IMG/VR virus record: IMGVR_UViG_3300027265_000045
Location: 1 to 59,436 of that record
Source of the DNA: a virus
Taxonomy: Duplodnaviria > Caudoviricetes
Strand: one strand, 5' to 3'
Length of the DNA stretch: 59,436 nt
Position 1 is the stretch's first letter. Every line of letters starts with the position of its first letter. The translations under genes were made by a program, and so were the position numbers. Shown piece after piece: positions 1 to 46,597 of this stretch. The notes beneath the pieces were generated by a model, which was not told the origin of the DNA, did not search any database, and worked only from the letters and a program-made list of their open reading frames with translations.

Positions 1-1170
1 ATGCACTTATCAGAAAATTTAGAGGAGATCAAGAGTTACCGACCGGCCAGGCTGGCAACGGGTAAGGAGTGGTTTGTGGAATATTATGTGTATAATATTG
101 AGTTTAAGAAAATGGTCCGTAAAAAGATCATGCTTAATTATATTGATAAAATTTCGGACCGCCGGGCCTTTGCCGGTCGGCTTATGAGGAAGTTAAATGC
201 CGAACTTGAGAAAGGATGGAACCCTTACGTGGCTGAAGAAAATTCGCGGAGCTATGCTCTGCTACCGAAAGTACTAGATGATTTTATAAATCTTCAGCGC
301 AAAAAACATAAGGAGGGCGATATCAGGGAGGCAACAATACACAGTTACGAAAGCTATTATAACAAGTTTAGCGAATACCTTGTAGCTGAGAAACTGATGG
401 ACATGTATGTTTACTATTTCAATAAAGAATTTATTATCAAATATCTGGACTATGTGTATAACGGACGAAACCTGTCGAGCCGCACACGCGATAACTATCT
501 GAAATTTATACGTCTTTTCTGCAATTACCTGGTTGAACGGTCATTCTTAAAGGTATCACCAGCTGAAACAATATCGGTACTGGGTAAAAGCAAGCGAGCT
601 GTAAAAAACAGAACTGTACTCCCGGTTGATATTATGACAAAAGTTTCGGAATACCTGAATACGAATAACCGACACTTCCTTATTGCCGCCCAGATATTAT
701 ATTTCTGTATGATAAGGCCAAAGGAAATGACATTTATTAAGATTAAACATATTGACCTGGAACGATCAGTAATTTTTGTAGATGGCGAAACGGCTAAAAA
801 TTATGAGGATGGTCTGGTTACCATTCCCGAAAGCTTGAATTCACTTATAAGTGAAATGGGGATAATGGATTATCCGGGAGAGTATTATTTATTCTCGCAC
901 GGATTTAAACCAGGTACAACACATTGCCAGCCTACTTTAATGAGTAAATATTGGGACCGGTATGTACGCAAGGCGTTAAAGCTGCCAATGAATTTAAAAT
1001 TCTATAGCCTGAAGGATACCGGCATTACTGACATGATCCGGACGCATAATAACCCGTTGCTTGCCCGCGATCAGGCGCGCCATCATGATTTATCAATTAC
1101 AAATATGTATTTGCCATCAGATATGAAACAGGCTAATGAAACAATTAAAAACGATAGCCGCAAATTTTAA
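1..1170 (+). CDS. int: Tyrosine recombinase / phage integrase
   Basis: IRPKEM (Arg), TAKN (Lys), FYSLKDTG (variant HxxR box), QARHHDLSITNMY (His/Tyr); N-terminal core-binding region. Confidence 0.9.
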   Translation: MHLSENLEEIKSYRPARLATGKEWFVEYYVYNIEFKKMVRKKIMLNYIDKISDRRAFAGRLMRKLNAELEKGWNPYVAEENSRSYALLPKVLDDFINLQRKKHKEGDIREATIHSYESYYNKFSEYLVAEKLMDMYVYYFNKEFIIKYLDYVYNGRNLSSRTRDNYLKFIRLFCNYLVERSFLKVSPAETISVLGKSKRAVKNRTVLPVDIMTKVSEYLNTNNRHFLIAAQILYFCMIRPKEMTFIKIKHIDLERSVIFVDGETAKNYEDGLVTIPESLNSLISEMGIMDYPGEYYLFSHGFKPGTTHCQPTLMSKYWDRYVRKALKLPMNLKFYSLKDTGITDMIRTHNNPLLARDQARHHDLSITNMYLPSDMKQANETIKNDSRKF

Positions 1171-3051: not shown

Positions 3052-5268
3052 CTAGCACGTATACACATCCATTTCCGCTACACTCAACCCCTCGCTAAGC
3101 ATGTTCACCCTGATTTCTTTAATCAGAAACATAAAACCATTGCCCGAATATATCTGATCAACCTGATCAGATTGCAGTTGCTTCAGCTGCACTGGTGTTA
3201 AGACCACTCTGAAGGTTGCCGGTTTGCTTTCGTAGGCCAGCCAGCGTAGGAATTCTTTCCACCGGTTATTGAAAATCGATTCGGCATTCAGATCCGGGAA
3301 GAATAACGGATCCCCGCTATAATCGTCGTAACGGCAAGTACCAAGCGGATAAGGTTGTGCGAGACTATCGAGCGACATGCCTTTGAAGTACAGCACCTGT
3401 GTTCCGTATTCCGATCCAAGCGAGTCGGGAAATCCCTCGAGTATGCCAGGTTGTTCGGTTACTGGCAATATATAATGCCGGGTTGCCGGTGCACCTGGTA
3501 CATCGTCGGCTATATACGACGAAAGTACCGGACATAAATTAGTGGTGCGCTGCAGGTAAGGTTCTTCGCCATCGGTGTATACTATCTGAAAATTTTTGCT
3601 GTAAAAAACCCAGGCAAGTAAATAGGTTTCAGTTGAATATTGCCACACCCAAAATTCGTTAAGCGAGGTTACCAGGTACATATCATTCACCTTATTGCCT
3701 AGGTTTGATAAATGATAAATATCGATAACGGTTCCTTTGTAAACAAGCTTCTCATTCAACGGCTTTATATTGGCGAGATATTTATCTGCTGATGCACTTT
3801 TCAGCTCGAATTTTATTCCTTTGTATTCTTCAGTAACTGTAACTTTTGGCGATGGTAGTAAAATACCCGGAAACGCTACAGCCTGATTGGTAGGCGTTAC
3901 AACTGATTTTGCTTTAATATCAATAAATGTGATAGTGCGCGTATTATTGTCAACAATCGGTATGTACCCGGTAAGTTGCGAAATCCAGTTCATGAAATCG
4001 CTTTGCAACATTGCCGGTACATGGCTCACAAGGTTGAATGACGGATTAACAGGCATCTTGGTAGTTGAATCGGAACTGTATGTATTTTCAGCGTAGGCAT
4101 TGAATAGTACAGCGTTTTTGAAATAAACCGTGTCGAAAGGATTATTTACTATGCTATATCCCGCTTCAGTTGCAATTTTTTTGACAATAGTATTCAGATA
4201 GATAAAAGGGGTGAACAGATTGGCGGCAACAAAAGGTTCGTTTTCAACATTACCCCATATCATCAAGGGGAATTCACCGTTTTTGTAGTAATTAAGAACT
4301 TTGATATATTGTGTATATATCGTTTTAATAGACAAATTGTCAAGTTCAAAAATATCGTCAGGGAAATTTGAAAGAAACTCTTTGTTGTGAATAGGGAAAA
4401 CAGTAAAGTCTGCACTATCCTGATCCTGCGTTACAACCACATCGAAAAGGTTGGTTTTTTTGTATTCGACAAGGCAAACAGATATGAATATGTCGGCAAT
4501 AGTACCGGCCGGAAAAAGCGATTCGGTAATGCAAACAAGTTCAACCGTAACAATATCGCCGGTAATCAGGGTAAGGCTGTTAACTATTTCCGCAGGTGGC
4601 AATGTGCCTCCGGGCTGAGCTGAATATGTTTCGTCGAAGTACGCAACTCCGTTTTTGCGGGCAATTACCTGCAGCGATCCGGAAGTGAAAGCAGTGTTCA
4701 AAACTATCGACTGAGTACAGGTAGTATCCTGGTCGGCAACAAAAGTGCGACCATCCACGCCCATCGACGAGGTGATGTCCTTAATTACATGAAGCGGCTC
4801 ATTAACAGTGAATGTAATAAACCCTTCGTATAATGGATCGTTGTAACTCACCACAATATTTTCGACCGATGCAACTGAATAAAAATCGGTAATAACAATA
4901 TCGTCGCCCCACAATAGATCCTTCAACGTTTTACCAGCTATGGTTCCGGCAAAATCCCCATTATCAATCCTAAATGATACTTCGTACTTGTCCTGATCAG
5001 CTTGTGTTCCCACGCAGGTGCCTACAAAGCGCAAACCGTATGCTGTAATTACATATGGCAGTTCAGCGGTAGCACGGCCATGACGTTGCACACGGTGTGC
5101 CTGAGCAAACTCCTGCCTTAACTGTGGTGTGGCGGCGAAAGAGGTATTGAAAATGTAGGAACCAGGGATACGGTTTTCGGCCGTTATAAATAGTGGCGAC
5201 CGGTACACCAGTGGCAAACTGATACCCTGATCTACAGCAACGATTGTATTTCCAATTTTTATTTGCAT
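3052..5268 (-). CDS. Tail tip / baseplate hub protein
   Basis: 738 aa at the end of the tail module; N-terminal SPLF..GSYIFNTSF pattern resembles Bacteroidota siphophage tail proteins. Confidence 0.55.
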   Translation of the reverse strand: MQIKIGNTIVAVDQGISLPLVYRSPLFITAENRIPGSYIFNTSFAATPQLRQEFAQAHRVQRHGRATAELPYVITAYGLRFVGTCVGTQADQDKYEVSFRIDNGDFAGTIAGKTLKDLLWGDDIVITDFYSVASVENIVVSYNDPLYEGFITFTVNEPLHVIKDITSSMGVDGRTFVADQDTTCTQSIVLNTAFTSGSLQVIARKNGVAYFDETYSAQPGGTLPPAEIVNSLTLITGDIVTVELVCITESLFPAGTIADIFISVCLVEYKKTNLFDVVVTQDQDSADFTVFPIHNKEFLSNFPDDIFELDNLSIKTIYTQYIKVLNYYKNGEFPLMIWGNVENEPFVAANLFTPFIYLNTIVKKIATEAGYSIVNNPFDTVYFKNAVLFNAYAENTYSSDSTTKMPVNPSFNLVSHVPAMLQSDFMNWISQLTGYIPIVDNNTRTITFIDIKAKSVVTPTNQAVAFPGILLPSPKVTVTEEYKGIKFELKSASADKYLANIKPLNEKLVYKGTVIDIYHLSNLGNKVNDMYLVTSLNEFWVWQYSTETYLLAWVFYSKNFQIVYTDGEEPYLQRTTNLCPVLSSYIADDVPGAPATRHYILPVTEQPGILEGFPDSLGSEYGTQVLYFKGMSLDSLAQPYPLGTCRYDDYSGDPLFFPDLNAESIFNNRWKEFLRWLAYESKPATFRVVLTPVQLKQLQSDQVDQIYSGNGFMFLIKEIRVNMLSEGLSVAEMDVYTC

Positions 5269-5278
5269 AAGGCTAAGG

Positions 5279-5788
5279 TTACTCCTTAATCATCCACGCC
5301 ACAGCATCGTACTGATGTTGCGTTAATTCTTTGGTATCGCTATCCTTTATGTTTTTGAAATCGAAAGTTTCGGTAACTATTTCGTCCATAAACTCAGTAT
5401 ATGCCTTGATATCGGCATCACGCTCTTTGATAGCTTCGGCATATTTCGCTTTTAGATCCGCAAGTTCTTTCACTAACTTTGGATTGGCCACATCAATGGC
5501 CGGATTGCCGCCGATCAGCACGCTCTTGCCTTCTGAATCAGTTAACAGGTACTTTCCGCGCGTTTCGTTGAAAGCCTTCTGGTAGGTTTCGAATTCTTCG
5601 GTAAGCGGTATGCGTACTGTGGCTGAGTTCTCTTTCTCGAACTTACGGAGGATCATCAGGTTTTTACTCCGTGCTGAGCACAGTGCGTTTGGTAGCCCTT
5701 TTACTTCGCTGAGCAATGCAAACCGATCAAGGAGATCTCCAACTGTGAGACCGTCTTTTACTTTTTTTACTTCTTTTAAAAATGCCAT
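5279..5788 (-). CDS. Hypothetical protein (possible fibre chaperone)
   Basis: Charged helical protein downstream of the tail fibre. Confidence 0.5.
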   Translation of the reverse strand: MAFLKEVKKVKDGLTVGDLLDRFALLSEVKGLPNALCSARSKNLMILRKFEKENSATVRIPLTEEFETYQKAFNETRGKYLLTDSEGKSVLIGGNPAIDVANPKLVKELADLKAKYAEAIKERDADIKAYTEFMDEIVTETFDFKNIKDSDTKELTQHQYDAVAWMIKE

Positions 5789-5830
5789 GGTTAGTTTATT
5801 TATTTGTTATGCAATAGCTTAAAGAAGCCA

Positions 5831-6040
5831 TTACGATGCATTTGTTTCCTTTTCTGCAACACCTAAAAATGGATTTCCAAATTTATCCAAATGAATATGT
5901 TCTACAATTGTCCAACTATCAGGCATTTGATTTCCATCGTCTTCAAAAAACCAACCGTGAGAATCCCATCCAGTTTTTGTAGTTTCGGTTTCATACCATT
6001 CTTGTCTTACAATTCTTTTTTCTGTAATTGTTGTTGCCAT
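5831..6040 (-). CDS. Small hypothetical protein
   Basis: ORF in tail-module orientation, likely start MATTITE. Confidence 0.45.
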   Translation of the reverse strand: MATTITEKRIVRQEWYETETTKTGWDSHGWFFEDDGNQMPDSWTIVEHIHLDKFGNPFLGVAEKETNAS

Positions 6041-6047
6041 ATTTTTG

Positions 6048-8267
6048 TTATGCTGCATTAGTTTTTATCACATGACCTCTTACTCCGACAAAATTCCTCG
6101 ATGTGGAGTAAGTTAGTTTCATGCCGGTGTACATTGCAGCAGCAAGGTTAACTGTTGAGCTGTATATGCCAAATGCACTAATTGAGGTACTTCCAATATT
6201 CCCAACTATACTATAAGCAATTGATGTACTTGATGCCCTCGTATAGTTTATATGTAGAACAAAATTGCCAGTAGCTGCACCCAGGCTAATACCATTTCTC
6301 GATGTTGAAGTATCTAAACTCAGTATTATATTCACTGATTCATTAATTGTTCCGCAATATACAAGCTCCAGTTTATCGCCATTTGTTGCTAGTGTTCCGG
6401 ATGGCATTGTGTACAGGAACTGATATAGTGGGCCTGTACCTGTTTGAGTATCGGTTGTATACCAGTCGGCAAGTGGAGTTACTGTCCCAATGCCGGCGTG
6501 TGTATGATCGCCATAAGCGGCAGTAACATGATCGGTACCAAACCCGGGAAATGATACTTTATTGTTGAATGTACTCCAGTTAGCTGCTGACAGTGCTCCT
6601 GTAGCTTCTGACGAAGCCAGCCCCAAACTCAGTACCTGTGTGCCAACACCTAATGATAAACCATTAGCGGAAGCTCCTATTGTTACCGGATCGTGGCTGC
6701 TCCCACCACCGGAGGCTGCTATAGTAACATTGTATTTTCCTCCTGAACCTGATGATTCAGAAAGCGTTATACCAGTACCTGCTATTAGATTGAGTGAACT
6801 ATATTCCCCAGCGGCCAAACCTGTTGCACCTGTTTTCATGATATGACGTACAGTTGTCGAGCTATCGAGTATAATATCCCAGCTAATGTATGTATCCTTA
6901 CTGTTGAATGTATTCCAATCCGTTGCCGTGAGTGCTCCGGTGCGCTCAGCCGAAGCAGTTGTAAGTGATAGCACCTGATTTGCCGCTAAGCTTAACCCAT
7001 TTTGTGCTGTGCCAAGCGAAAGCGGATAGTGCGCTGCGCTAAAAGCAGTATTCCAGTTGGTAATATCAGTTGCTGTAATTGAAGTTGCTACATAGGCAGC
7101 CCAGCTGGCATTGCCGCTGGCATCGCTAGTAAGCAAGTAGCCTGATGCTGCTCCGGTTGTGAGTTTAAGGGTTTGCGAAGTGGTGAGACCGGCAACATCG
7201 AGAGCTGAAGAAGGATTAGCAGTTCCTATTCCTAAATATCCATTTGGCACCAACACATTTCCGGTTCCTAGTGTCAATAGTGAGAGATTTGTATTTGTAT
7301 ACAAGCTAACGATCGACATTCCGCTACCGCTATAACCTTTTATTGTCATGTTATTTCCATAAGCAGAATCATACGCGTTCATTTTCATGTACGCGGATCC
7401 GTTCGTTAGCTTTAAAATATCATTATGCCCTTGTACTGTCAGCAGATTTGAGGGTATTAATGTCCCAATACCTACATATCCAGAAGGTGCAATATACATT
7501 GAGTAGGATGTTGGTAATGCAGCTCCGCTGGAGATATTGAACCCTATTCCATTGTATGCACTAATAGCAAGGTCAGCTTGTACACCTGCAATGCTGTCAT
7601 TTCTTGTGATTGAGCTGACTAAAGTTCCACTATCAGTATAACTTAATATTCCTCTATTTAATGTTGAGTTTGTTTGGCCTAATCTTATGTTTCCCCAAAC
7701 ATCCAACTTATCATGTGGTGCTGTCGTCCCAATTCCGACGTTGCCGGAAGTTCCTTCAATTGTGACTTTAGGTGTAATAACATTTCCTCCGGTATAAAAA
7801 TCAAGGTCCTTATTTGCATCCGCTGCACCACCTCTATAAATAGATTTAATACCGGCTTCAACATCTGCAACACCCGATGTGTTATAAAAAAGGATAGAGG
7901 ATGCCAAGGCATCTGCTTTGGTTGTGCTATTTTCAATTCTAAATATCGGAGACGCTCCTGCAACTACCAATTTAGTGCCCGGTGCCGTCGTCCCAATGCC
8001 GACCCGATGATTAACCGAATCTACGAAAAGCGTATTGGTGTCAACAGTTAGATTGTGCACTCCAAGGTTAACATTAGCGGTTGCACCGGTGTAGGGGACA
8101 TATCCTGCCGCATCAGCAGTTGTAAGTAATCGTAACTCATCAGCTCCGCTTATGCGTTGATACAAACCGTCCGCTTTTGCATTAAAACCTACAAAGCCAG
8201 CAGGCACAGTGTCGAGTGTGCCTACGGCCTGAAGATTAAGACCAACGAGATACTTTTTACTTGCCAT
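6048..8267 (-). CDS. Tail fibre / receptor-binding protein
   Basis: G/T/S/A-rich; four GxVGIGT-like repeats; duplicated NGLSL..QVLSL..ASxExTGAL...WxTFN motif. Confidence 0.75.
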   Translation of the reverse strand: MASKKYLVGLNLQAVGTLDTVPAGFVGFNAKADGLYQRISGADELRLLTTADAAGYVPYTGATANVNLGVHNLTVDTNTLFVDSVNHRVGIGTTAPGTKLVVAGASPIFRIENSTTKADALASSILFYNTSGVADVEAGIKSIYRGGAADANKDLDFYTGGNVITPKVTIEGTSGNVGIGTTAPHDKLDVWGNIRLGQTNSTLNRGILSYTDSGTLVSSITRNDSIAGVQADLAISAYNGIGFNISSGAALPTSYSMYIAPSGYVGIGTLIPSNLLTVQGHNDILKLTNGSAYMKMNAYDSAYGNNMTIKGYSGSGMSIVSLYTNTNLSLLTLGTGNVLVPNGYLGIGTANPSSALDVAGLTTSQTLKLTTGAASGYLLTSDASGNASWAAYVATSITATDITNWNTAFSAAHYPLSLGTAQNGLSLAANQVLSLTTASAERTGALTATDWNTFNSKDTYISWDIILDSSTTVRHIMKTGATGLAAGEYSSLNLIAGTGITLSESSGSGGKYNVTIAASGGGSSHDPVTIGASANGLSLGVGTQVLSLGLASSEATGALSAANWSTFNNKVSFPGFGTDHVTAAYGDHTHAGIGTVTPLADWYTTDTQTGTGPLYQFLYTMPSGTLATNGDKLELVYCGTINESVNIILSLDTSTSRNGISLGAATGNFVLHINYTRASSTSIAYSIVGNIGSTSISAFGIYSSTVNLAAAMYTGMKLTYSTSRNFVGVRGHVIKTNAA

Positions 8268-8273
8268 TGATTA

Positions 8274-9317
8274 CTATCTTCCAATAATATTAACAGTATA
8301 TTGATTTGTTGTAGGAGCTACATTAACTGAAACCGTAACAGTAGTTGTTGAAGTTATATAGACCTCACACTGCACTTCCTCAAAAGTTGTGGTGTTGTAA
8401 ACTGAAACTATTACCTCTCGGGTAATTAGTCCATGTGTAAACACAAATGATGTTAAAGTTCCGTTACCGAATGCTGCACTATACGTTTTTGCTGCTGCTC
8501 CAAGTTTTTGTGTAAGTGTAGCCGGAGTTACCGCTCTTGTAGCATCAGTACCGGTATTAACCTCGGACTGAGTTGCAAGTTCGATAATACCTTGTGCTGT
8601 TTCACTTGCTGAAACAATATCAGGTATGTTTTTATTAACTACTGTCCAGTGCGATTCAAGAGTAGGAGAGTCCTGATTTGCAATAATCATATCACCGATA
8701 GCAACACCAGTTGTGAAGAAGGTTCCTGCAACAGTTACCACATAAGTCCAGCCGTTTTTGATACCGGCAATAGGCGTAGCATCGAGCAAAGGTGTATTGG
8801 TAGCGGCATCGTAGCCCCCTTTATTAACGAGAGCACCACTGATAAGGCTGTTAACTCCTGCAACAAGATTATCCACATAAGTCTTCACCGCCAATTGTGA
8901 ACTTATCTTTGTATTAACTGCTCCGGCTCCTCCAAGAGTTACATCTGTATCGGCAAGCATAATTAATACTTGTAATACGGTCAAATCGATAGGAGCAGCT
9001 GCACTACCGGTATTGTTACCTTTAATGGTATTGGCCGCCATGTTTGCCATCTTGGCGTTTGTAACAGCACTGTTTGCAATTGTTTGGGCCCCATCTCCCG
9101 CACTTGTCACATCGCCCGAGTGGTTTGGATGTACATAAGGAAAGGTCTTCCATGCGGATCCAGTCCAAACATACAACTTTGCATCTGCAGTATTGTAATA
9201 AATAAACCCGGCATCCCCCGCTGTAAGCGTTGGGCTTGTAGCCAGGTTCTGAATTTTTTGATTGAGCATTTGATTCTTGTTCAAATCAATGTCAACGAGA
9301 AATGATTTCTTTGCCAT
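8274..9317 (-). CDS. Tail fibre-like protein
   Basis: ASETAQGIIELATQSEVNTGTDATRAVTP fibre repeat; IYYNTAD..LYVWTGSAW motif. Confidence 0.7.
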   Translation of the reverse strand: MAKKSFLVDIDLNKNQMLNQKIQNLATSPTLTAGDAGFIYYNTADAKLYVWTGSAWKTFPYVHPNHSGDVTSAGDGAQTIANSAVTNAKMANMAANTIKGNNTGSAAAPIDLTVLQVLIMLADTDVTLGGAGAVNTKISSQLAVKTYVDNLVAGVNSLISGALVNKGGYDAATNTPLLDATPIAGIKNGWTYVVTVAGTFFTTGVAIGDMIIANQDSPTLESHWTVVNKNIPDIVSASETAQGIIELATQSEVNTGTDATRAVTPATLTQKLGAAAKTYSAAFGNGTLTSFVFTHGLITREVIVSVYNTTTFEEVQCEVYITSTTTVTVSVNVAPTTNQYTVNIIGR

Positions 9318-23191: not shown

Positions 23192-23863
23192 TTATGTAAA
23201 GTATTTAGCGTCGGGCAATAATTTTAATAAACTATTGTATGCTGCAATATCTCTTGCTTTGAGTGATTGTATTGATTCGCTGGCAAACTTGCGGGGGATG
23301 CCTGAAGTAGTTCTTGCCTCAAATCCTTCATTTAAATATTTGCTTAATACTGGCAATCTGTTTGAAAGGCAATATGTTGCAATATCATTTGTTGACCAAT
23401 CCGACATAGGACAAATTCGATATTTACCCTCTTTCATTTTATAAAAATTACCTGCCGTTTTTAATGAAATACGGCGTCCGGCGCTTTCATCTTTCCTCAA
23501 ACCAACAAAATAAGAATCATGTTCCAGGTTGGAAGTAGCTGTTGATACGGTTCGTTTTTTTGAACCTGTTTCGAGCCATCCCAATACGGTAATTTGCCTC
23601 AAATTTATATCGCCCCACTGGGCTATAACTTCAGCATAATTATCTACCAGATCAGTTTCTATACGTCTCACAAAAATAGCCTGCACATCAGGCAATTGCT
23701 TCAATACAAGATGCAGCATCACAGCGCTATCCTTCCCGAAACTACAGGCAACATAGGGATTTTGTACCTGCTTTAACGCCCAGGCAATAAACCTTTCCGT
23801 TTTTGTTACCAGGTACCGGAACTCATGTGTTTTCGCGTACAATAAAGCGGTTCGTTCGTCCAT
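23192..23863 (-). CDS. cysH: CysH-like PAPS reductase family protein (type IV-B associated)
   Basis: VACSFGKDS PP-loop, VGLRKDESAGRR, CPMSDWS; lies between csf2 and csf3. Confidence 0.85.
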   Translation of the reverse strand: MDERTALLYAKTHEFRYLVTKTERFIAWALKQVQNPYVACSFGKDSAVMLHLVLKQLPDVQAIFVRRIETDLVDNYAEVIAQWGDINLRQITVLGWLETGSKKRTVSTATSNLEHDSYFVGLRKDESAGRRISLKTAGNFYKMKEGKYRICPMSDWSTNDIATYCLSNRLPVLSKYLNEGFEARTTSGIPRKFASESIQSLKARDIAAYNSLLKLLPDAKYFT

Positions 23864-40320: not shown

Positions 40321-41541
40321 TTACACTGCTTTTGTTAATCCTGATTTACCTACCCAATCGCGGAAGAGGATTGGCATTACCGATCCATCGCGGTACACTT
40401 TATCCAGGGTAATGTCGGCGGTTATTTCATCGCCGGTCCATTTGTTGGGAAATGTGCGTAATGCGATGAGCTCGCGGATCCTTGCCTCTTCTTCCTGATC
40501 GATCAGCAGGAATTCAGTTCCTTTTGAGGTGGCGTTTACCCGTTTTTGGATATCCAGTATTTTATCGAGGAAATAAAGCCTGGCTTCGAGGGTTAAAGGT
40601 CCGATACGTTGCTGGTTCTTACTGAGCTTACCATCTTTGTTACGGTCGCCACCCGATTTACGATGGCGGTATTGTGGCAGGCGCATTTTACGGTACAAGG
40701 GTTTAAGTTCCATCAATGGAGTAAGATGTTTCCATGCTGTTATCTTGATTACTTCGGTTAAAGCTTTCTCTTTCGAAACTAATGGACAGGCAATGCACCC
40801 GGTACGGGCTGCGATATCGCCGGCATTATCGCCGCCATAGGCATCGGCAAGTATTGCGGTTGGCCATTCGCCGTAATCCTTGGATGGGGCAAATACTTTA
40901 AGCCAATCCCATATGGAACATACACGCCAATGTAATAAAGGCGCCAGAGTGCTGCATAAATCGGTACTCAGCCCGGTTTGGTACCAGCCCTGGCCACATT
41001 CGGCATCACCTTTGGCGCAACTCATATGTATTTTGCCATCACGTATAGCACTTTCGCCCTGCCGTACGCCGGTAAGCATTAATATTTTTTCACCGGTTTC
41101 GTTGTATAGGTCCTGCAGGGCTTTCTCCATAGGTTCAATCTTTATTTGCCCGGTACACCAGCGCATAGTATTGGAAGGAGGCGGAACGCCACGGCCGAGG
41201 ATATACGTCATAAACCGATCATCCATATCAGCCATTACGGTACGAACTTCAATGCCTTTGCCTTTCAATTTTTTGATAATAAATTCGGAAGCAATCCAAA
41301 GCGGCGGCAGCTCCATGCGTGTATCGGCACGCAGAACTGTAAGCGAATGCGGTTTCATTATCTGGCCGGTTTCGATAAGCTGTACCAATAAGGTAAGCAA
41401 GGCGGTTGAATCCTTGCCCATGCTCCAGGCAATTGCCCAATGCTTATGAAACTGGCCGTATGCGTTAACTGATTCGCATGTGAGGCGGATCTGCTCGTTA
41501 AAATCGATGCGTTTTACTCCGAATAGGTTTAGATCTTCCAT
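40321..41541 (-). CDS. PAPS reductase family protein (DndC-like, Cys-containing)
   Basis: IAWSMGKDS, ADTRMELP, RWCTGQIKIEP, GVRQGESAIRD, RTGCIACPL. Confidence 0.85.
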   Translation of the reverse strand: MEDLNLFGVKRIDFNEQIRLTCESVNAYGQFHKHWAIAWSMGKDSTALLTLLVQLIETGQIMKPHSLTVLRADTRMELPPLWIASEFIIKKLKGKGIEVRTVMADMDDRFMTYILGRGVPPPSNTMRWCTGQIKIEPMEKALQDLYNETGEKILMLTGVRQGESAIRDGKIHMSCAKGDAECGQGWYQTGLSTDLCSTLAPLLHWRVCSIWDWLKVFAPSKDYGEWPTAILADAYGGDNAGDIAARTGCIACPLVSKEKALTEVIKITAWKHLTPLMELKPLYRKMRLPQYRHRKSGGDRNKDGKLSKNQQRIGPLTLEARLYFLDKILDIQKRVNATSKGTEFLLIDQEEEARIRELIALRTFPNKWTGDEITADITLDKVYRDGSVMPILFRDWVGKSGLTKAV

Positions 41542-41676
41542 TTGATTGCGTGTTATTAAAGTTTACTATGTTGAAAGTTAAATAGTGCTGTGTTTATTTA
41601 ACTTTTCTATTGATCATAAAAAGATTAAGTAAAAAGAAAGCGTTCGTTTTGCCTCCTGAAAGTGAGTTTACTGTAT

Positions 41677-41934
41677 TCATTTTTTAATTATTGTAACGCT
41701 ACATGCATATAACCCGGTGAAATAATGAATCATTTCATCCTGATCTTTGAATACCTTTAACGGGATACCGCTTCCCCATCCTGTATAAACCAGGTATTGA
41801 TCAACCAGATAAATTTTAGCACCGGTTGAAGCTCCTTCCCATGGACCATTCTTATGTGTAGTAGTTACCACATAAGCGTTATGTTTCTTACTGAATTCAA
41901 TTTTTACAGAGGTTATAATTTGTGCCATGGTCAT
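41677..41934 (-). CDS. Hypothetical protein
   Basis: Overlaps the upstream gene stop. Confidence 0.55.
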   Translation of the reverse strand: MTMAQIITSVKIEFSKKHNAYVVTTTHKNGPWEGASTGAKIYLVDQYLVYTGWGSGIPLKVFKDQDEMIHYFTGLYACSVTIIKK

Positions 41935-42509
41935 TTTTCTGTTTTAAGTAAAAAGGATTTTCCCGTTAAAGGTGCCGGATAAACATCTTTTAATCTCCCA
42001 TATTCATCAATCAGGCAATAACACTTGAGTAATCCCTGTTTTGTTCGTTTAAATCCTTCGTGATGGTATTGTTTTTCAAATGCCTGTGCCCATGTATCGA
42101 AATCAAAAGAAATTACTTTGCAATGAATCAGGTTCATTATTTTATCCAGAATTTGCTTTTCGCGATGTCCGGAACTGAAGTTTAAGGCATAATCTTGTTT
42201 TAGAGTTTTTATATATATGTACCATCCTGAGAAAAAATTAGTGTCATTAAAGAATACCCATATAAAACAAGCCCGTTCCGTTTCATGCCTTAGCTTTAAT
42301 TTAAGATTATTCTTCTGTTTTTCTGTTCGCTTTGCAAAAACATGTTTCCATGTTATTGGAATCCATTTTTCATATGAGTTATTCCTTTCGAAATAGCACA
42401 CATTCCTGGGAGCTTTAAATCTATTCTCATTGCTTCTTTTAATATTCCACCAAAACTCTGCAGCTTTACGCGGCATAGTTTGTGATAATGATCCTGTTAG
42501 GTTACCCAT
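41931..42509 (-). CDS. Hypothetical protein
   Basis: Overlaps the radical SAM gene stop. Confidence 0.6.
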   Translation of the reverse strand: MGNLTGSLSQTMPRKAAEFWWNIKRSNENRFKAPRNVCYFERNNSYEKWIPITWKHVFAKRTEKQKNNLKLKLRHETERACFIWVFFNDTNFFSGWYIYIKTLKQDYALNFSSGHREKQILDKIMNLIHCKVISFDFDTWAQAFEKQYHHEGFKRTKQGLLKCYCLIDEYGRLKDVYPAPLTGKSFLLKTEK

Positions 42510-43332
42510 GACAATTGGATGTATGCATTAATGTTTCTTCATGCAATTTATAATCCCTCCCCACGCAATTGGCCGGTAATTCTTCACGGGTAATACCAGA
42601 TTGTTTCAGAAATGAATCTTTATAGTAAATAGGAGTATTGGGTAAATCATGTTCTATCCAGCGCATCATAACAAGTAACTCCATCTGATCATACTTTTTG
42701 CCTGCCATTAAACCAATTTTATACAAATCGCAGAAACCGACAGTCTTTTGGATCATCAGTAAACTGGCATTAACATCAATTATAGGTTCAATGCTAGCAA
42801 AAGTTTTGAAACCTTTTTCATGCAAAAACCGCATTGTGTTTATACGCTTTGCATTAGTGCTTGCACCGGGTTCCAATTCATCATGCCCGGTCAGTGTAAA
42901 TCCAAACGAAAGATTTTTATATGCATTTCTTAAATAGCCGATATTTAACAGAATATTCCAATCAACTCTTTTTGTGAGTATTTTAACAGGAATATTCCAG
43001 CTTAGGCATAATTCCATTGCACGTAATGTCAAACGGTAAGTTTCCGGAAGCAATGGATCTGTTGTGAATGAAAAGAATAAACCATGTTGCTGCAGCTCAC
43101 GTTCATTTGTTGCCATTTCTGTGCAAAAGATATCCATTGCGTGTTGTTCATCCCTGAAACATTTCTTCAGCACCGCCTTATCACCTCCCATGGTACCGGC
43201 CAGTCTTCCTTTTTTGCAATAACAATACTCGCATCCATTGGAGCATCCAACATAAAAATTACATGCCCATTGAGCGTATTCACCGGCTTTGCCTGATGGG
43301 TTGTAAATTGCTTTTCCTTTAAATTGTTTCAT
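42502..43332 (-). CDS. Radical SAM protein (SPL-like)
   Basis: CSNGCEYC (CxxxCxxC), SFTTDP, KILTK, LEPGAS, ASIEPI. Confidence 0.85.
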   Translation of the reverse strand: MKQFKGKAIYNPSGKAGEYAQWACNFYVGCSNGCEYCYCKKGRLAGTMGGDKAVLKKCFRDEQHAMDIFCTEMATNERELQQHGLFFSFTTDPLLPETYRLTLRAMELCLSWNIPVKILTKRVDWNILLNIGYLRNAYKNLSFGFTLTGHDELEPGASTNAKRINTMRFLHEKGFKTFASIEPIIDVNASLLMIQKTVGFCDLYKIGLMAGKKYDQMELLVMMRWIEHDLPNTPIYYKDSFLKQSGITREELPANCVGRDYKLHEETLMHTSNCHG

Positions 43333-43341
43333 TTTTAGTGA

Positions 43342-43647
43342 TTAAGTAAACAGGTATCTTTCGTTTTCTTCTTTAATGGTGGTTGTGAATGGGAACCCTG
43401 AGGCGGGAACCTGCTCAATTACTTCGATCAGTCCGGATGAACCGGTGAAAACGATGTGCTTTTCGTTGTTGAATGATATTTGAAGGTGCAGGCATTTTCC
43501 TGAGCCACGGTCCTTAAACACTTTGGATTCCTCAATTTTAAATGCGTGTACCACGATTTCGCGGTTAAGTATTTTCGACATTTTGATTTTGTCGCCCTCA
43601 AAATTCTTTGAGGCTGTAGCAATGTTGAATTGACTGAAACTATTCAT
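43342..43647 (-). CDS. Small protein translationally coupled to the DGR RT
   Basis: ATG at 43647 overlaps the RT stop (ATGAATAG); 101 aa, beta-rich. Confidence 0.7.
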   Translation of the reverse strand: MNSFSQFNIATASKNFEGDKIKMSKILNREIVVHAFKIEESKVFKDRGSGKCLHLQISFNNEKHIVFTGSSGLIEVIEQVPASGFPFTTTIKEENERYLFT

Positions 43648-44593
43648 GAAGTAGTTTTTTAAGTAAGTGTTTGCTGTTGCAGTGCGATGCCCATCCGTTG
43701 TACGATGCAATGGATTGCCGGTTCCGGTTCCGGATCAGCATCCGGGCAAAGTTTTGTTTGATGCTTTTGCGCAATAAAGTGTGGGTGTGAAAGAAAACAT
43801 ATCCTACAAAATCAATCCCTCGTTTGCTGACCGGGAATACCTGGTAGTTATGTTTTACCTCGAGCTTCAGGTTTACATCCAGGTATTGCCTGATATCGGC
43901 AAGCAGCTGGTGCAAATAGGCTTTTGATGGGGAGAGGATTACCATATCATCAGCATAGCGGAAGTAATATTTTACCTGTCGCTGCTCTTTCATCCAGTGG
44001 TCGAAGTAAGTAAGATAGAAATTGGCAAAATACTGGCTCAGGTAGTTGCCTATGGGTAAACCTTCGGCGCTGTCGATAATACCATCGAGAAGCCATAAAA
44101 GGTCCTGATCTTTTATTTTGCGCCGAAGCAGCCGTTTAAGCGTGTCGTGATCGACTGTTGGATAAAACTTGCGGATATCTAGTTTAAAGCAATACTGGGT
44201 GCCAGGTATGTCGCGCAAAGCTTGTTTAACAGCATTGGCAGCGGCATGTATTCCGCGTTTCTTGATGCAGCTGTATGTGTCGGCTGTAAAAACGGATACA
44301 AACAGTGGTTCCAGTATATTCATTACCGCATGATGTGTGATGCGATCAGGGAAATAAGGCAGGCGAAAAATTAAACGCTCCTTGGGTTCCCTGATGGTAA
44401 AGGTGGTGTATTCCGAAGTGGTGTATGTTTTACGTACCAGCATTTGGTGCAGTGCTTGAATATTTGCTTCGCGGTTTTTGTCGTGCGCTACAACGCCGGG
44501 TTGTTTTAGCTTGCCTTTACGGGCAATGCTGTCGGCTAGTTGAAGGTTTTCAACGCTGCAGATGCTTGCGTACAGATTTCCGGTTCTTTTCAT
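43640..44593 (-). CDS. DGR reverse transcriptase
   Basis: PKERLI, DRITHHA, LDIRKFY, GLPIGNYLSQ (DGR-type SQ motif), YFRYADD. Confidence 0.95.
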   Translation of the reverse strand: MKRTGNLYASICSVENLQLADSIARKGKLKQPGVVAHDKNREANIQALHQMLVRKTYTTSEYTTFTIREPKERLIFRLPYFPDRITHHAVMNILEPLFVSVFTADTYSCIKKRGIHAAANAVKQALRDIPGTQYCFKLDIRKFYPTVDHDTLKRLLRRKIKDQDLLWLLDGIIDSAEGLPIGNYLSQYFANFYLTYFDHWMKEQRQVKYYFRYADDMVILSPSKAYLHQLLADIRQYLDVNLKLEVKHNYQVFPVSKRGIDFVGYVFFHTHTLLRKSIKQNFARMLIRNRNRQSIASYNGWASHCNSKHLLKKLLHE

Positions 44594-44849
44594 CTCTTTT
44601 GTTTAACAATTACATTTACCATATTGACAAGTTTATAACCCCCGTTACATTCTTCACATTGAAGAAACCAAGGCCAACAATGACAACATGCCTTGCAATT
44701 CTTTTCTTTCTTTTTCATTGTATATTAAATCAAAAGGAGGTAAAACACTTTGCCTGATTAAAAATCGTTTTCCCGCTCAGGTACCAACGCTTTTTTAGAG
44801 TTTACTTTATTTTTTTGCCGTGTGGGCAGGGTTTACGCCGCGTTAATAA

Positions 44850-44930
44850 GCATAGGTGAGAGCTGACATTCGTATTCGTGTTCGTATAGTTGTAATTCGA
44901 ATTCGAAAAACTGAACCCGGAGGACAGGGC
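44850..44930 (-). repeat. DGR template repeat (TR)
   Basis: Non-coding; AAY-rich on minus (reads LSSGFSFSNSNYNYTNTNTNVSSHLC); differs from both VRs only at adenines. Confidence 0.95.
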
Positions 44931-44964
44931 TGTCAGACAATCGCAGCATACAACCGGTACTGTT

Positions 44965-45399
44965 TTATTTCAAAATCAAAAGGCTCTGCTTATACTCCTC
45001 CTGAAATGTTTTTCCGATGTACAGGGCTGTTTTGCTGCTATATGTGCAAAGGCGAGAGCCGACAGTCGTATCCGCGCCCGTAAAGCCGTAACCCGAAAAC
45101 GAAAAACCGAACCCGGAGGACAGGGCCGCTGATGCTTCAACCAAAAACCATGGATAATACTTTAATTGACTGCTATCATTCCAGTCAGGTTCCCATCCGT
45201 TATTAATGGCCTTAAAAATGATAAACAATTTGTATAGGTTAACAATAGCCGTCCTAAATTCTTCAGGTATCATTGATACATCTGGAAGTGCTTCCGGATC
45301 CAGTTGTAATTTTTTGCATGCGTCCTCATACGATTTGATTGTACGATAATCAAATACCGGTTTGCCTTTTGCTGTCTTTTTTGTTTTCGCTGTTGTCAT
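44965..45399 (-). CDS. DGR target protein 1
   Basis: Contains VR1; paralogue of 45409-45882 (IKSYEDAC, AINNGWEPDWND, KYYPWF, VGSRLC). Confidence 0.9.
   Translation of the reverse strand: MTTAKTKKTAKGKPVFDYRTIKSYEDACKKLQLDPEALPDVSMIPEEFRTAIVNLYKLFIIFKAINNGWEPDWNDSSQLKYYPWFLVEASAALSSGFGFSFSGYGFTGADTTVGSRLCTYSSKTALYIGKTFQEEYKQSLLILK
45046..45126 (-). repeat. DGR variable repeat VR1
   Basis: 81-bp ungapped match to TR, 16 mismatches, all at TR adenines. Confidence 0.95.
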
Positions 45400-45408
45400 T
45401 TTGGGGTT

Positions 45409-45882
45409 TTATTTAAGGGTTAAAAATTGTTCGTATAAATCAATAAATTGTTGGCCTGCATAATCGGACGTTAATTTGTCGCGAAAGCAAAGGCGAGAGC
45501 CGACACCCGCAGCCGCGGCCGTATAGAAGTAATTCGAATCCGAAAAACCGAACCCGGAGGACAGGTTAAACCACGGATACCACTTCTTTTGATTGGAGTC
45601 GTTCCAGTCGGGGATCCATCCCTCGTTTAATGCTCCTACAATAACCTTCAATTTTTTGTAAGCTATTTCGTCAGGATCTTCATCTTCGTCAAAAATTGGT
45701 CTGCACGCATTATTCGATATTCCTAATTCTTCGCAACCATCCTCAAATGTTTTAATGCGATCGGTAATTTTTTGAGAGAAACACTCAGCTCCGAACGAGC
45801 TGATAAGTATTTCTTTTACTTCTTCCGAAGACTTTTTAAAAATCTTGCGGGCTGTTGTTTGGTCTAACTGCAGGTTTTTCAT
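45409..45882 (-). CDS. DGR target protein 2
   Basis: Contains VR2; IKTFEDGC, ALNEGWIPDWND, KWYPWF, VGSRLC. Confidence 0.9.
   Translation of the reverse strand: MKNLQLDQTTARKIFKKSSEEVKEILISSFGAECFSQKITDRIKTFEDGCEELGISNNACRPIFDEDEDPDEIAYKKLKVIVGALNEGWIPDWNDSNQKKWYPWFNLSSGFGFSDSNYFYTAAAAGVGSRLCFRDKLTSDYAGQQFIDLYEQFLTLK
45487..45565 (-). repeat. DGR variable repeat VR2
   Basis: 79-bp ungapped match to TR, 15 mismatches, all at TR adenines. Confidence 0.95.
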
Positions 45883-45904
45883 GTGTGATTTGTCTATTGG
45901 TTAT

Positions 45905-46597
45905 TTATTGGTTATTAATGCGTTTAAATTCAATTACCCATACCCATGGATTGGATTTCCAGCTTTCTTCGCCGTTTATTTTCATCCATATTGAAGCGAA
46001 TCCTGTTCTGTAGTTTGGTTCCCTCGAGGAAAACTTAACGCTTGAATGCATATTGGTTAATGCTTCAGCTCCTTCGGACATTGCATCAGCTTCCGAAATA
46101 TTATGGAGGCACTCAACTCTGATATTAGTTATCTCAAGTAATAGACGAGAAGCTTTGCGGGGCATAAACATGGAGCTGCGTTTGTACCATCCCATTTTAT
46201 AAGTTTTGCCTGTTTGCAGGCGTTGGGGTTTATTCTCTTGGTATTTATAAACGAAGTCGATACCGGTGCAATCAACAAAACTGTATTTATTCTTACCTGT
46301 TTTTGTTTTACCTTTTTGCTCCCAATATCCGTAGGCATAATACATTTCTTTTACCCAAAGTTTATCACCTGGTTTGCCAAATGGACAGATAGATCCGGCA
46401 CAACTCTCACTATCATTTTTACCTTTAAAATGAGCAAAACTATCTCCATCAGTTAATCCGGCAAATTCTATTGAAGGATTGTTAAAGAAATTAACTTTAG
46501 TAACTATTCTCCTGGTCATTGTTTTTCTCTCTTCCAAAATGGCCTGCACCATTGGAGTACTGAATAAAATCGGGTGTTCTGTGTTTCTTGCTTTCAT
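45905..46597 (-). CDS. ASCH/PUA-like phage protein
   Basis: PILFSTPMVQAILEERKTMTRR, GDKLWVKE, SMFMPRKASR, NPWVWVIEF. Confidence 0.75.
   Translation of the reverse strand: MKARNTEHPILFSTPMVQAILEERKTMTRRIVTKVNFFNNPSIEFAGLTDGDSFAHFKGKNDSESCAGSICPFGKPGDKLWVKEMYYAYGYWEQKGKTKTGKNKYSFVDCTGIDFVYKYQENKPQRLQTGKTYKMGWYKRSSMFMPRKASRLLLEITNIRVECLHNISEADAMSEGAEALTNMHSSVKFSSREPNYRTGFASIWMKINGEESWKSNPWVWVIEFKRINNQ

Follow-up and report, generated by a model that had tools for sequence, protein, structure and literature searches.

We analyzed the IMG/VR virus record IMGVR_UViG_3300027265_000045 (Duplodnaviria; Caudoviricetes) over its full 59,436 nucleotides (nt), hereafter the window, and describe in it a real, well-formed diversity-generating retroelement (DGR) of an already catalogued kind. 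The element comprises a reverse transcriptase (RT), a template repeat (TR) and two variable repeats (VRs) within the genes of two small paralogous proteins, and it lies among early genes. It is an intact, Avd-less Bacteroidota DGR (Lineage 3, VR class CLec3, category f4; target cluster PC_00007), and, with a probability of roughly 60% for the reading as a whole, its early genes encode soluble variable binders that stay out of the virion and act in the infected cell or in the lysate. The functional side of this reading, that the proteins are early-expressed, soluble, non-virion binders at work in the cell or lysate, is drawn from context.

Repeats, reverse transcriptase and relatives of the cassette

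On the minus strand, the cassette is ordered as long target, short target, TR, spacer RNA, RT and a 101-amino-acid (aa) gene (Table 1). Aligned without gaps on the coding strand, TR and VR1 differed at 16 positions and TR and VR2 (45565 to 45487) at 15, and all of these mismatches (16/16 and 15/15) fell at TR adenines. The hypergeometric probability of such a placement by chance is 6e-13 for VR1 and 1e-11 for VR2. At the 5' edge of VR2, two further bases (45566-45567) mismatch TR at non-adenine positions. When TR was slid along both strands of the window, 12 or fewer non-adenine mismatches occurred only at TR itself, VR1 (0) and VR2 (2), and the fewest among 20,000 random placements was 31. 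The target profile also picked up TR as a third copy, one without an open reading frame (ORF). A first-pass annotation made from the sequence alone had reported these repeats and their adenine-only pattern, and its positions and counts proved correct in every particular when re-derived.

Four of the mismatches were the same in VR1 and VR2 and fixed family-wide (one A>G on the 5' side and, on the 3' side, two A>G changes and one synonymous A>T), so the truly variable stretch has 12 mismatches in VR1 and 11 in VR2. This mutable stretch covers about 35 nt, with 11 codons and 17 adenines, giving a DNA-level variant space of 4^17, or about 1.7e10 per gene. Family column statistics were taken from 96 of 130 TR/VR pairs, aligned on the GSRLC codons. 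Among these, adenines in the central ~40 nt were replaced by all four bases in the VRs, one 5' TR adenine was always G, and the three 3' TR adenines were always changed alike (A>G, A>G, A>T). We note that the first two of these 3' changes are partly forced by the GSRLC anchoring pattern, whereas the third is not. The synonymous leucine change (CTA>CTT) was kept in 89 of 90 TR/VR pairs, and the residues G, S, R, L and C were invariant in 40 of 40 aligned proteins. Judging from these alignments, we regard the 3' changes as fixed differences between donor and recipient in a GC-rich 15-nt segment, like the initiation of mutagenic homing (IMH) and IMH* elements set out in Wu 2018. Since about 25 more residues come after the VR, the IMH-like segment lies within coding sequence. 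No GC-rich hairpin was found after the repeats in DNA folds of the 100 nt following VR1, VR2 and TR (z of -0.5, 0.1 and -0.56 against shuffles).

Following the established DGR mechanism, a transcript of TR and spacer would be reverse-transcribed with random incorporation opposite adenines, and the resulting complementary DNA would replace the mutable stretch of each VR. The 3' limit of this replacement may be set by the GC-rich IMH-like coding segment that encodes the invariant G-S-R-L-C. TR is marked as the donor by its three fixed adenines at the IMH-like place.

The I/LGxxxSQ motif is diagnostic of DGR RTs, and the window RT carries GLPIGNYLSQ together with YADD. Both motifs, noted in the first-pass annotation, were read again here, and the protein matched RVT_1 and phrog_1423. 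Its scores stayed under the curated thresholds of the group II intron, Drt and retron RT models, and it shared 67% identity with the RT of a relative that has a TR/VR set as well. The strings GLPIGNYLSQYFANFYL...YYFRYADD are common to the window RT and to the t120 and t121 RTs of Wu 2018 (PMC5758913), as printed in the supplement of Roux 2021 (PMC8144416). No Avd-like Pfam or PHROG match was found among the eight proteins scanned, from the phosphoadenosine phosphosulfate (PAPS) reductase (40321) to the phrog_874 gene (46597). A missing Avd is consistent with the Avd-less Lineage 3 of Wu 2018.

Homologues of the targets are numerous and are usually found beside an RT. A word-indexed search with the target returned 410 homologues (E <= 1e-3) among 455 candidates, nearly all of 150-160 aa, and an exhaustive profile search returned 4,691 cluster representatives at E <= 1e-3 (494 of them at <= 1e-30). 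We surveyed homologous cassettes in the best 80 of 341 IMG/VR stretches encoding a relative and in the best 79 of 246 bacterial stretches from one-genome-per-species contigs. An RT lay directly downstream of the targets in 69 of the 80 viral loci (no RT within reach in 10, RT elsewhere in one) and was adjacent in 58 of the 79 bacterial loci (none within 4 kb in 20, non-adjacent in one). The 69 viral loci with an adjacent RT included 58 with two targets and two adenine-only VRs, three with three of each and four with one of each; in the remaining four, detectable VRs were fewer than targets. Forty of the 58 bacterial loci likewise had two targets and two VRs. Hosts were nearly all Bacteroidota, including Bacteroidales, Chitinophagaceae, Prolixibacteraceae, Flavobacteriia, Sphingobacteriia and Cytophagia. 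The family was also present in contigs of metagenome-assembled genomes (MAGs) with other labels (L118, L149, L159, L161, L163 and L164; Methylacidiphilales, Clostridia, Christensenella and Borkfalkiaceae), and these labels could reflect binning contamination or a wider host range.

The number of target copies ranged from one to four across the family. In a typical pair, the first gene encodes the long form, with a median of 157 aa, and the second a short form (median 134 aa) from which the initial ~30 residues are missing. The closest relative of the window cassette (L095; Bacteroidales MAG OY782677.1; 76% identity) has four tandem targets and four adenine-only VRs. The word-index search for fused forms of 276-2000 aa found none, and the exhaustive search contained 250-353 aa representatives with two matched stretches (P0121-P0132 and others), which are tandem fusions or read-through calls. 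An acidic and basic pairing of paralogues was considered and rejected: the isoelectric points in the window are 4.77 and 8.75, but the pattern occurred in just 12 of 46 distinct pairs.

Table 1. Positions of the retroelement and other features in the window
Feature	Position	Strand	Remarks
Integrase	1-1170		PHROG annotation
Tail-fibre-like ORFs	3052-9317		PHROG annotation; between amidase and tape measure in gene order
101-aa gene, phrog_19665	43342-43647	minus	8-nt overlap with RT stop; OB-fold-like candidate accessory protein
DGR reverse transcriptase, 317 aa	43640-44593	minus	RVT_1 4.3e-18; phrog_1423 5e-126
Extra spacer, ~150 nt	44594-44735	minus	between RT-17-like RNA and RT start; window only
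Structured spacer RNA, Rfam RT-17-like	44750-44833	minus	directly 3' of TR
Spacer RNA helices	hairpin 44828-44825/44819-44816; 44793-44787/44768-44762; 44781-44780/44774-44773	minus	
TR	44850-44930	minus	81 nt, non-coding, 21 A; IMH*-like 3' segment 44850-44864
Target gene 1, short form, 144 aa	44965-45399	minus	paralogue of target 2; phrog_11581 7.2e-26
VR1	45046-45126	minus	variable stretch 45065-45099; IMH-like fixed 3' segment 45046-45060
Target gene 2, long form, 157 aa	45409-45882	minus	first cassette gene; phrog_11581 8.2e-33
VR2	45487-45567	minus	variable stretch 45506-45540; IMH-like fixed 3' segment 45487-45501

Target proteins and their genomic setting

The two targets were 44% identical to each other, and beyond the GSRLC end of the VR they extend by 26 and 25 residues. 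Neither contained a signal peptide, transmembrane segment or hydrophobic segment (highest Kyte-Doolittle 19-residue mean 1.08), in agreement with the first-pass description of two paralogues that lack signal and transmembrane segments. Pfam, NCBIfam and PADLOC gave no match to either protein, and PDB sequence profiles gave nothing below E 0.5.

An AlphaFold model of the 144-aa target (predicted local distance difference test, pLDDT, 80.7; predicted template modelling score, pTM, 0.75) combined three helices (one long, two short) with a beta-hairpin (99-105/108-114) and a further two helices at the C-terminus. Residues 101 and 103-112, which are the variable ones, map onto the hairpin, and we infer from this model that a helical scaffold may present a hypervariable beta-hairpin. 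Foldseek found no PDB match to the model at E <= 0.001 (best E 6.6), and VIA-align placed none of 48,161 chains at Z >= 5. The top VIA-align chain, at noise level, was the phage tail chain 7xdi_D (Z 4.1, root-mean-square deviation (rmsd) 3.8, 73 residues), and no lectin or formylglycine-generating-enzyme-type chain was among the structural matches listed. A BFVD search gave seven matches at E <= 1e-3, all to uncharacterised phage proteins, crAss-like ones included. The ESM Atlas held confident models of both targets (pTM 0.79 and 0.81), whose neighbours were unnamed clusters, mostly viral. An hhalign comparison of the family with the crAss cr53_1 tail protein gave nothing, although the ORF used ends at an in-frame stop before the annotated C-terminal VR part. 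The first-pass annotation had taken the targets for minimal C-type lectin (CLec) proteins. That view was not borne out by the model, which is a helical scaffold with a hairpin and without a match among solved structures, although the GSRLC end does fit the CLec3 VR alignment of Wu 2018, whose class label likewise implies a lectin fold. With no PDB likeness and only uncharacterised proteins in BFVD, the CLec fold is neither confirmed nor excluded.

The setting of these genes is the main evidence on where their products might act. The window spans an entire provirus record with a completeness rating of 100%; it has a single RT and no VR beyond VR1 and VR2, so the two small proteins are the sole targets of the DGR. 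By PHROG annotation the phage is a temperate siphophage in which the terminase and head protease come after the tail genes and are followed by the early block. That block holds a DndC-like PAPS reductase, a radical S-adenosylmethionine (radical-SAM) protein, the DGR, a nucleoside deoxyribosyltransferase, a primase, several methyltransferases and regulators. The positions of the tail-fibre-like ORFs confirm the first-pass estimate that fibre genes are about 36 kb from the cassette. Intergenic gaps of 9-34 nt make the cassette look like part of one long early operon. A promoter and terminator scan gave nothing above shuffles, with a sigma-70 consensus that is ill-suited to Bacteroidota.

Relatives were similar in this respect. 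We annotated the flanks of 11 of them (seven with and four without an adjacent RT), and in 11/11 the family gene was flanked by primase/helicase, RecT/RecE, DnaD/DnaC, methyltransferase, deoxyribosyltransferase or regulator genes, with tail genes beside it in 0/11. Thus the first-pass placement of the targets outside the tail genes, in the early or replication region, held in the window, in all 11 annotated relatives and in the Bacteroides phages Versailles and LoVEphage.

Directly downstream of the DGR (40321-43332, minus strand) are the DndC-like PAPS reductase (PADLOC DndC 3.9e-36), a 192-aa ORF without assignment and the radical-SAM protein, and this region looks like a DNA-modification (counter-restriction) island adjoining the cassette. 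An additional PAPS-reductase-like ORF is present at 23192-23863.

Homologues that had appeared to lack an RT extend this pattern to remote targets. In Versailles, LoVEphage and the complete L075 record, the small protein gene sits in a replication or DNA-modification module, and each genome has an RT elsewhere, with the TR adjoining it. Comparison of the distant TR with the VR of the small protein gave 14 mismatches at TR adenines and no others in Versailles, 19 and no others in LoVEphage, and 18 and one other in the L075 record. Because the distant TR matches the VR with mismatches at adenine sites, these apparently RT-less homologues are remote DGR targets. No RT was found in two more RT-less records, which are 76% and 73% complete. 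The 76% complete one (L052:5995-6486) has an Asn-rich VR-equivalent with S/H where all VRs have G/R, which could mean that the VR was overwritten recently, that the state is ancestral or that this is a TR within coding sequence. The LoVEphage early homologue was found by tblastn at 3e-4, with methyltransferase, PAPS-reductase, radical-SAM and tRNA-ligase genes as neighbours. The RT of this phage (L089-L091; OY731433.1 69291-70348) is matched in three successive segments that differ in frame, with a TAG codon inside one of them, and this fits the Quimbyvirus RT over three frames described in Benler 2021 (PMC8008677).

Each of these three genomes also has an RT-adjacent VR. The Versailles one is part of a 453-aa protein whose gene closes the tail module and which has no PDB sequence match. 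The Versailles tail-module target and the small early protein have only the 38-aa VR in common. In GenBank the small Versailles family member (L001 6001-6582; WAK79127.1) is labelled 'tail protein' (HHpred against PHROGs). As the VR is its only likeness to the tail-module target, this label was probably carried over from the VR.

These observations bear on whether the targets are virion-associated adhesins or receptor-binding adaptors that are encoded outside the tail module, dock on fibres or baseplate through their helical part and switch host range as in BPP-1. Such a role is suggested by the VR module (CLec3, with a GSRLC/GFRLC end), which is the same as in tail-module targets, and by the single TR that serves both the RT-adjacent target, an annotated tail-module protein in Versailles, and the small early protein in Versailles, LoVEphage and the L075 record. 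No further diversified receptor-binding protein is encoded by the window phage, and the best structural match, 7xdi_D, is from a phage tail, albeit at noise level. However, the family gene had replication, recombination or DNA-modification neighbours in 11/11 relatives and was never adjacent to tail genes, it has no likeness to the Versailles tail-module target beyond the VR, and the classifiers of Roux 2021 assign 'Phage_other'. Taken with this evidence, we consider an adhesin role somewhat unlikely.

A second alternative is that the proteins protect lysogens, acting from the prophage as a variable sensor or blocker against phages or mobile elements that enter (superinfection exclusion), much as has been proposed for bacterial DGR-diversified antigen sensors. 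The phage is temperate (an integrase gene in a provirus record), the family is common in prophages of cultured and uncultured Bacteroidota, and DNA-modification genes are nearby. Yet the genes lie within a long co-directional early lytic operon, and this position, together with the lack of a promoter or terminator signal above shuffles, disfavours moron-like expression in the lysogen. PADLOC also gave no matches. We regard this role as highly improbable.

Under the preferred reading, of soluble early binders in the infected cell or lysate, the position of the genes may point to intracellular action on a host defence protein, as the first-pass annotation proposed, and this repeats for the RT-adjacent form an idea put forward by Benler 2021 and Dahlman 2025 (PMC12629997) for the distal form. 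A bolder version would have PC_00007 as an intracellular 'antibody-like' repertoire of phages, in which the DGR retunes a hairpin on a non-lectin helical scaffold against host defence or takeover targets and an OB-fold protein replaces Avd. We think this version fairly unlikely. If true, no diversified counter-defence protein would have preceded these, and their scaffold would join the CLec and Ig-like folds as a third kind used by DGRs.

Natural activity, spacer RNA and the gene downstream of the RT

Comparison of 20 near-identical cassette pairs, eight of them 100% identical, was informative about activity. Loci L006 and L010 had nine differences in 2,108 nt, and 9/9 were at VR sites facing TR adenines. 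Between L021 and L025 there were 19 adenine-site VR differences, one at another VR site and 0/1,826 outside, and between L021 and L034 there were 23 adenine-site differences and two others; in this group both VRs varied. As a counter-example, L038 compared with L039/L040 had 90 differences outside the VRs and none inside. Since differences between near-identical relatives fall almost exclusively at VR adenine sites, this class of cassette is active in nature. For the window copy, Logan contigs from two runs (probably two filings of the source sample) included a 45.5-kb contig that covers 44500-46000 with no differences, and a 338-nt low-depth contig was from a diverged relative. The first-pass annotation had held that VRs invariant across reads and relatives would indicate an inactive element; the VR adenine sites vary in relatives, and the window copy was seen in contigs only.

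The first ~110 nt 3' of TR were conserved in relatives and appear to encode a structured spacer RNA, with a hairpin and a nested long-range helix. The conserved helices are kept in the window. Covariation was strong: across 28 sequences, 92.5% of cells in these helices were paired, compared with 70.8% in shuffles (0/500 shuffles as high), and slid controls were at most 48% paired. The spacer shares its position, between TR and RT, and its helices with Rfam RT-17 (RF03020), although the window copy scored 24.7 bits (E 0.097), below the gathering score of 40.4. RT-17 was above the gathering score at the same place in three of 12 relatives (L036, 48.0 bits; L074, 45.9; L082, 43.0). Rfam types RT-17 only as an sRNA gene, and its tie to DGR priming is an interpretation of the present analysis.

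Between this RNA and the RT start, the window alone contains the extra spacer listed in Table 1, so that TR and RT are 257 nt apart, compared with 93-134 nt in 66 relatives. The insertion holds a 42-aa Cys-rich ORF (44590-44718, minus strand) without a homologue, and blastn and tblastn found no match to the insertion in the other fetched loci or the remaining window.

The insertion raises the possibility that the element is a relic in this prophage, in which the TR/VR differences record past activity and the added ~150 nt uncoupled or silenced the element. The unusual TR-RT distance, an insertion without a relative among fetched loci, the RT-17 match below the gathering score and the single VR sequence in contigs from the probable source sample would all fit this. 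On the other side, all ORFs are intact (the RT with its YADD, both targets and the accessory gene), the spacer RNA helices are kept with the insertion 3' of the RNA element, and minority variants are invisible in contigs. A relic thus seems to us distinctly unlikely.

The gene that overlaps the RT stop is a recurrent part of these cassettes. Among 70 RT-bearing viral loci, 64 had an ORF within 150 nt past the RT end (two were truncated and four had no ORF), and 60 of those 64 ORFs belonged to one ~100-aa family, phrog_19665. The window protein had no Pfam, PDB-sequence, NCBIfam or PADLOC match. In its AlphaFold model (pLDDT 87.5), a single helix accompanies a small beta-barrel, and the top of the VIA-align list consisted mostly of SSB, PriB, RPA and editosome oligonucleotide/oligosaccharide-binding (OB) folds at Z 4-6.5. 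The best match was 2cqa (Z 6.5, rmsd 3.2, 69 residues), and SSB, Rim1 and PriB chains matched at Z 4-5.7 (rmsd 2.3-3.3, 62-69 residues). We infer that this OB-fold-like protein would stand in for Avd, probably supplying the nucleic-acid-binding accessory role that Avd has elsewhere.

Several findings weigh against an intact element with soluble binders as described above. The VR hairpin is the lowest-confidence part of the target model (pLDDT 51-76). Tail proteins likewise lack signal peptides, and the VR module is common to the tail-module targets of Versailles and LoVEphage, so a cell-surface ligand is possible. Matches to the 101-aa model were moderate, with nine chains at Z >= 5 and none at Z >= 8, the tool's caution level. 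The accessory gene is missing after the RT of Versailles; as it is absent from this remote-target cassette, it may serve the targets rather than retrohoming. Finally, the assembled contigs of the window copy give a single VR sequence, with the caveat that contigs cannot reveal minority variants.

Earlier descriptions and significance

The novelty implied by the first-pass annotation did not hold, as the cassette was catalogued by Wu 2018 and its target cluster by Roux 2021. Wu 2018 lists t120 from Galbibacter sp. ck-I2-15 (TG-TG-TR-RT, with two target genes (TG)) and t121 from Pedobacter arcticus A12, both in Lineage 3, which has no avd, with VR class CLec3 and category f4. Their targets (123-156 aa) resemble those of the window in the helical N-terminal part, DW.D..Q.KY, the GSRL end of the VR and the C-terminal extension, and, as in the window, a tandem pair is followed by TR and RT without avd. 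Wu 2018 does not describe the downstream 101-aa gene or the early-module context. The P. arcticus A12 locus (L134) was also found here, by tblastn (7e-33 over residues 36-156), with an RT, a TR and two adenine-only VRs.

In Roux 2021, the t120 and t121 targets are in PC_00007, of class 'Phage_other', with hosts in the FCB group. We assign the window to this cluster through homology to t120 and t121, and not by the clustering of that study. Classes there come from non-similarity classifiers, and 'PC_00007' appears at least 1,694 times in the target table. The relative position of the VR is 0.70-0.77 in PC_00007, compared with 0.94-0.95 in PC_00002 ('Phage_struct'), and in one DGR a PC_00007 protein is the secondary target alongside one from PC_00002.

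A distal target of Quimbyvirus, with methyltransferases and a tRNA ligase around it, was described in Benler 2021, and in Dahlman 2025 four prophage species that had been induced carried such a VR at a distance, close to counter-defence genes. Both papers proposed that the distal target serves phage-host conflict in a non-structural capacity. The LoVEphage remote target is this published distal VR and has the gene neighbours that both papers give; the identity of Quimbyvirus and LoVEphage rests on the citation of Benler 2021 for LoVEphage in Dahlman 2025 and on the three-frame RT, not on sequence comparison. LoVEphage has its RT-adjacent target in the tail module and a small protein 14 kb off, with a ~30-aa insert, whereas in the window the small proteins are the sole targets, paired and next to the RT.

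The window element shares with that of BPP-1 (mtd-avd-TR-brt), whose mechanism Wu 2018 summarises, the adenine-specific transfer from TR to VR, an IMH/IMH*-type 3' boundary and a TR adjoining the RT. It differs in having no Avd, a target that is not a tail fibre, an internal VR with a coding IMH, no hairpin after the VR, and two targets. The Bacuni phage DGR (PMC8143477) was considered as a member of the same class and ruled out, as it has DUF1566 targets and Avd. PMC10053308 contained nothing on intracellular targets of phages, and we found no paper that tested target function in a literature search that did not cover subscription journals.

What the analysis adds are the recurrence counts, the natural activity, the coding IMH-like segment, the RT-17 spacer, the OB-fold-like gene and the link to remote targets. 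The window itself is no new kind of element, and the comparative results give handles on cultured gut phages. The purpose of a hypervariable early-gene protein is a question for the whole family, for which cultured phages are better suited than an environmental provirus. Surveys tie DGRs mainly to phage tail fibres and cell-surface adhesins, and this target family is a large unexplained exception, whose members come almost without exception from Bacteroidota phages and prophages, have a DGR link in nearly every case and, in every case examined, stand among early genes. Were the proteins to work within the cell, the arms race that follows phage entry would be another process driven by DGRs.

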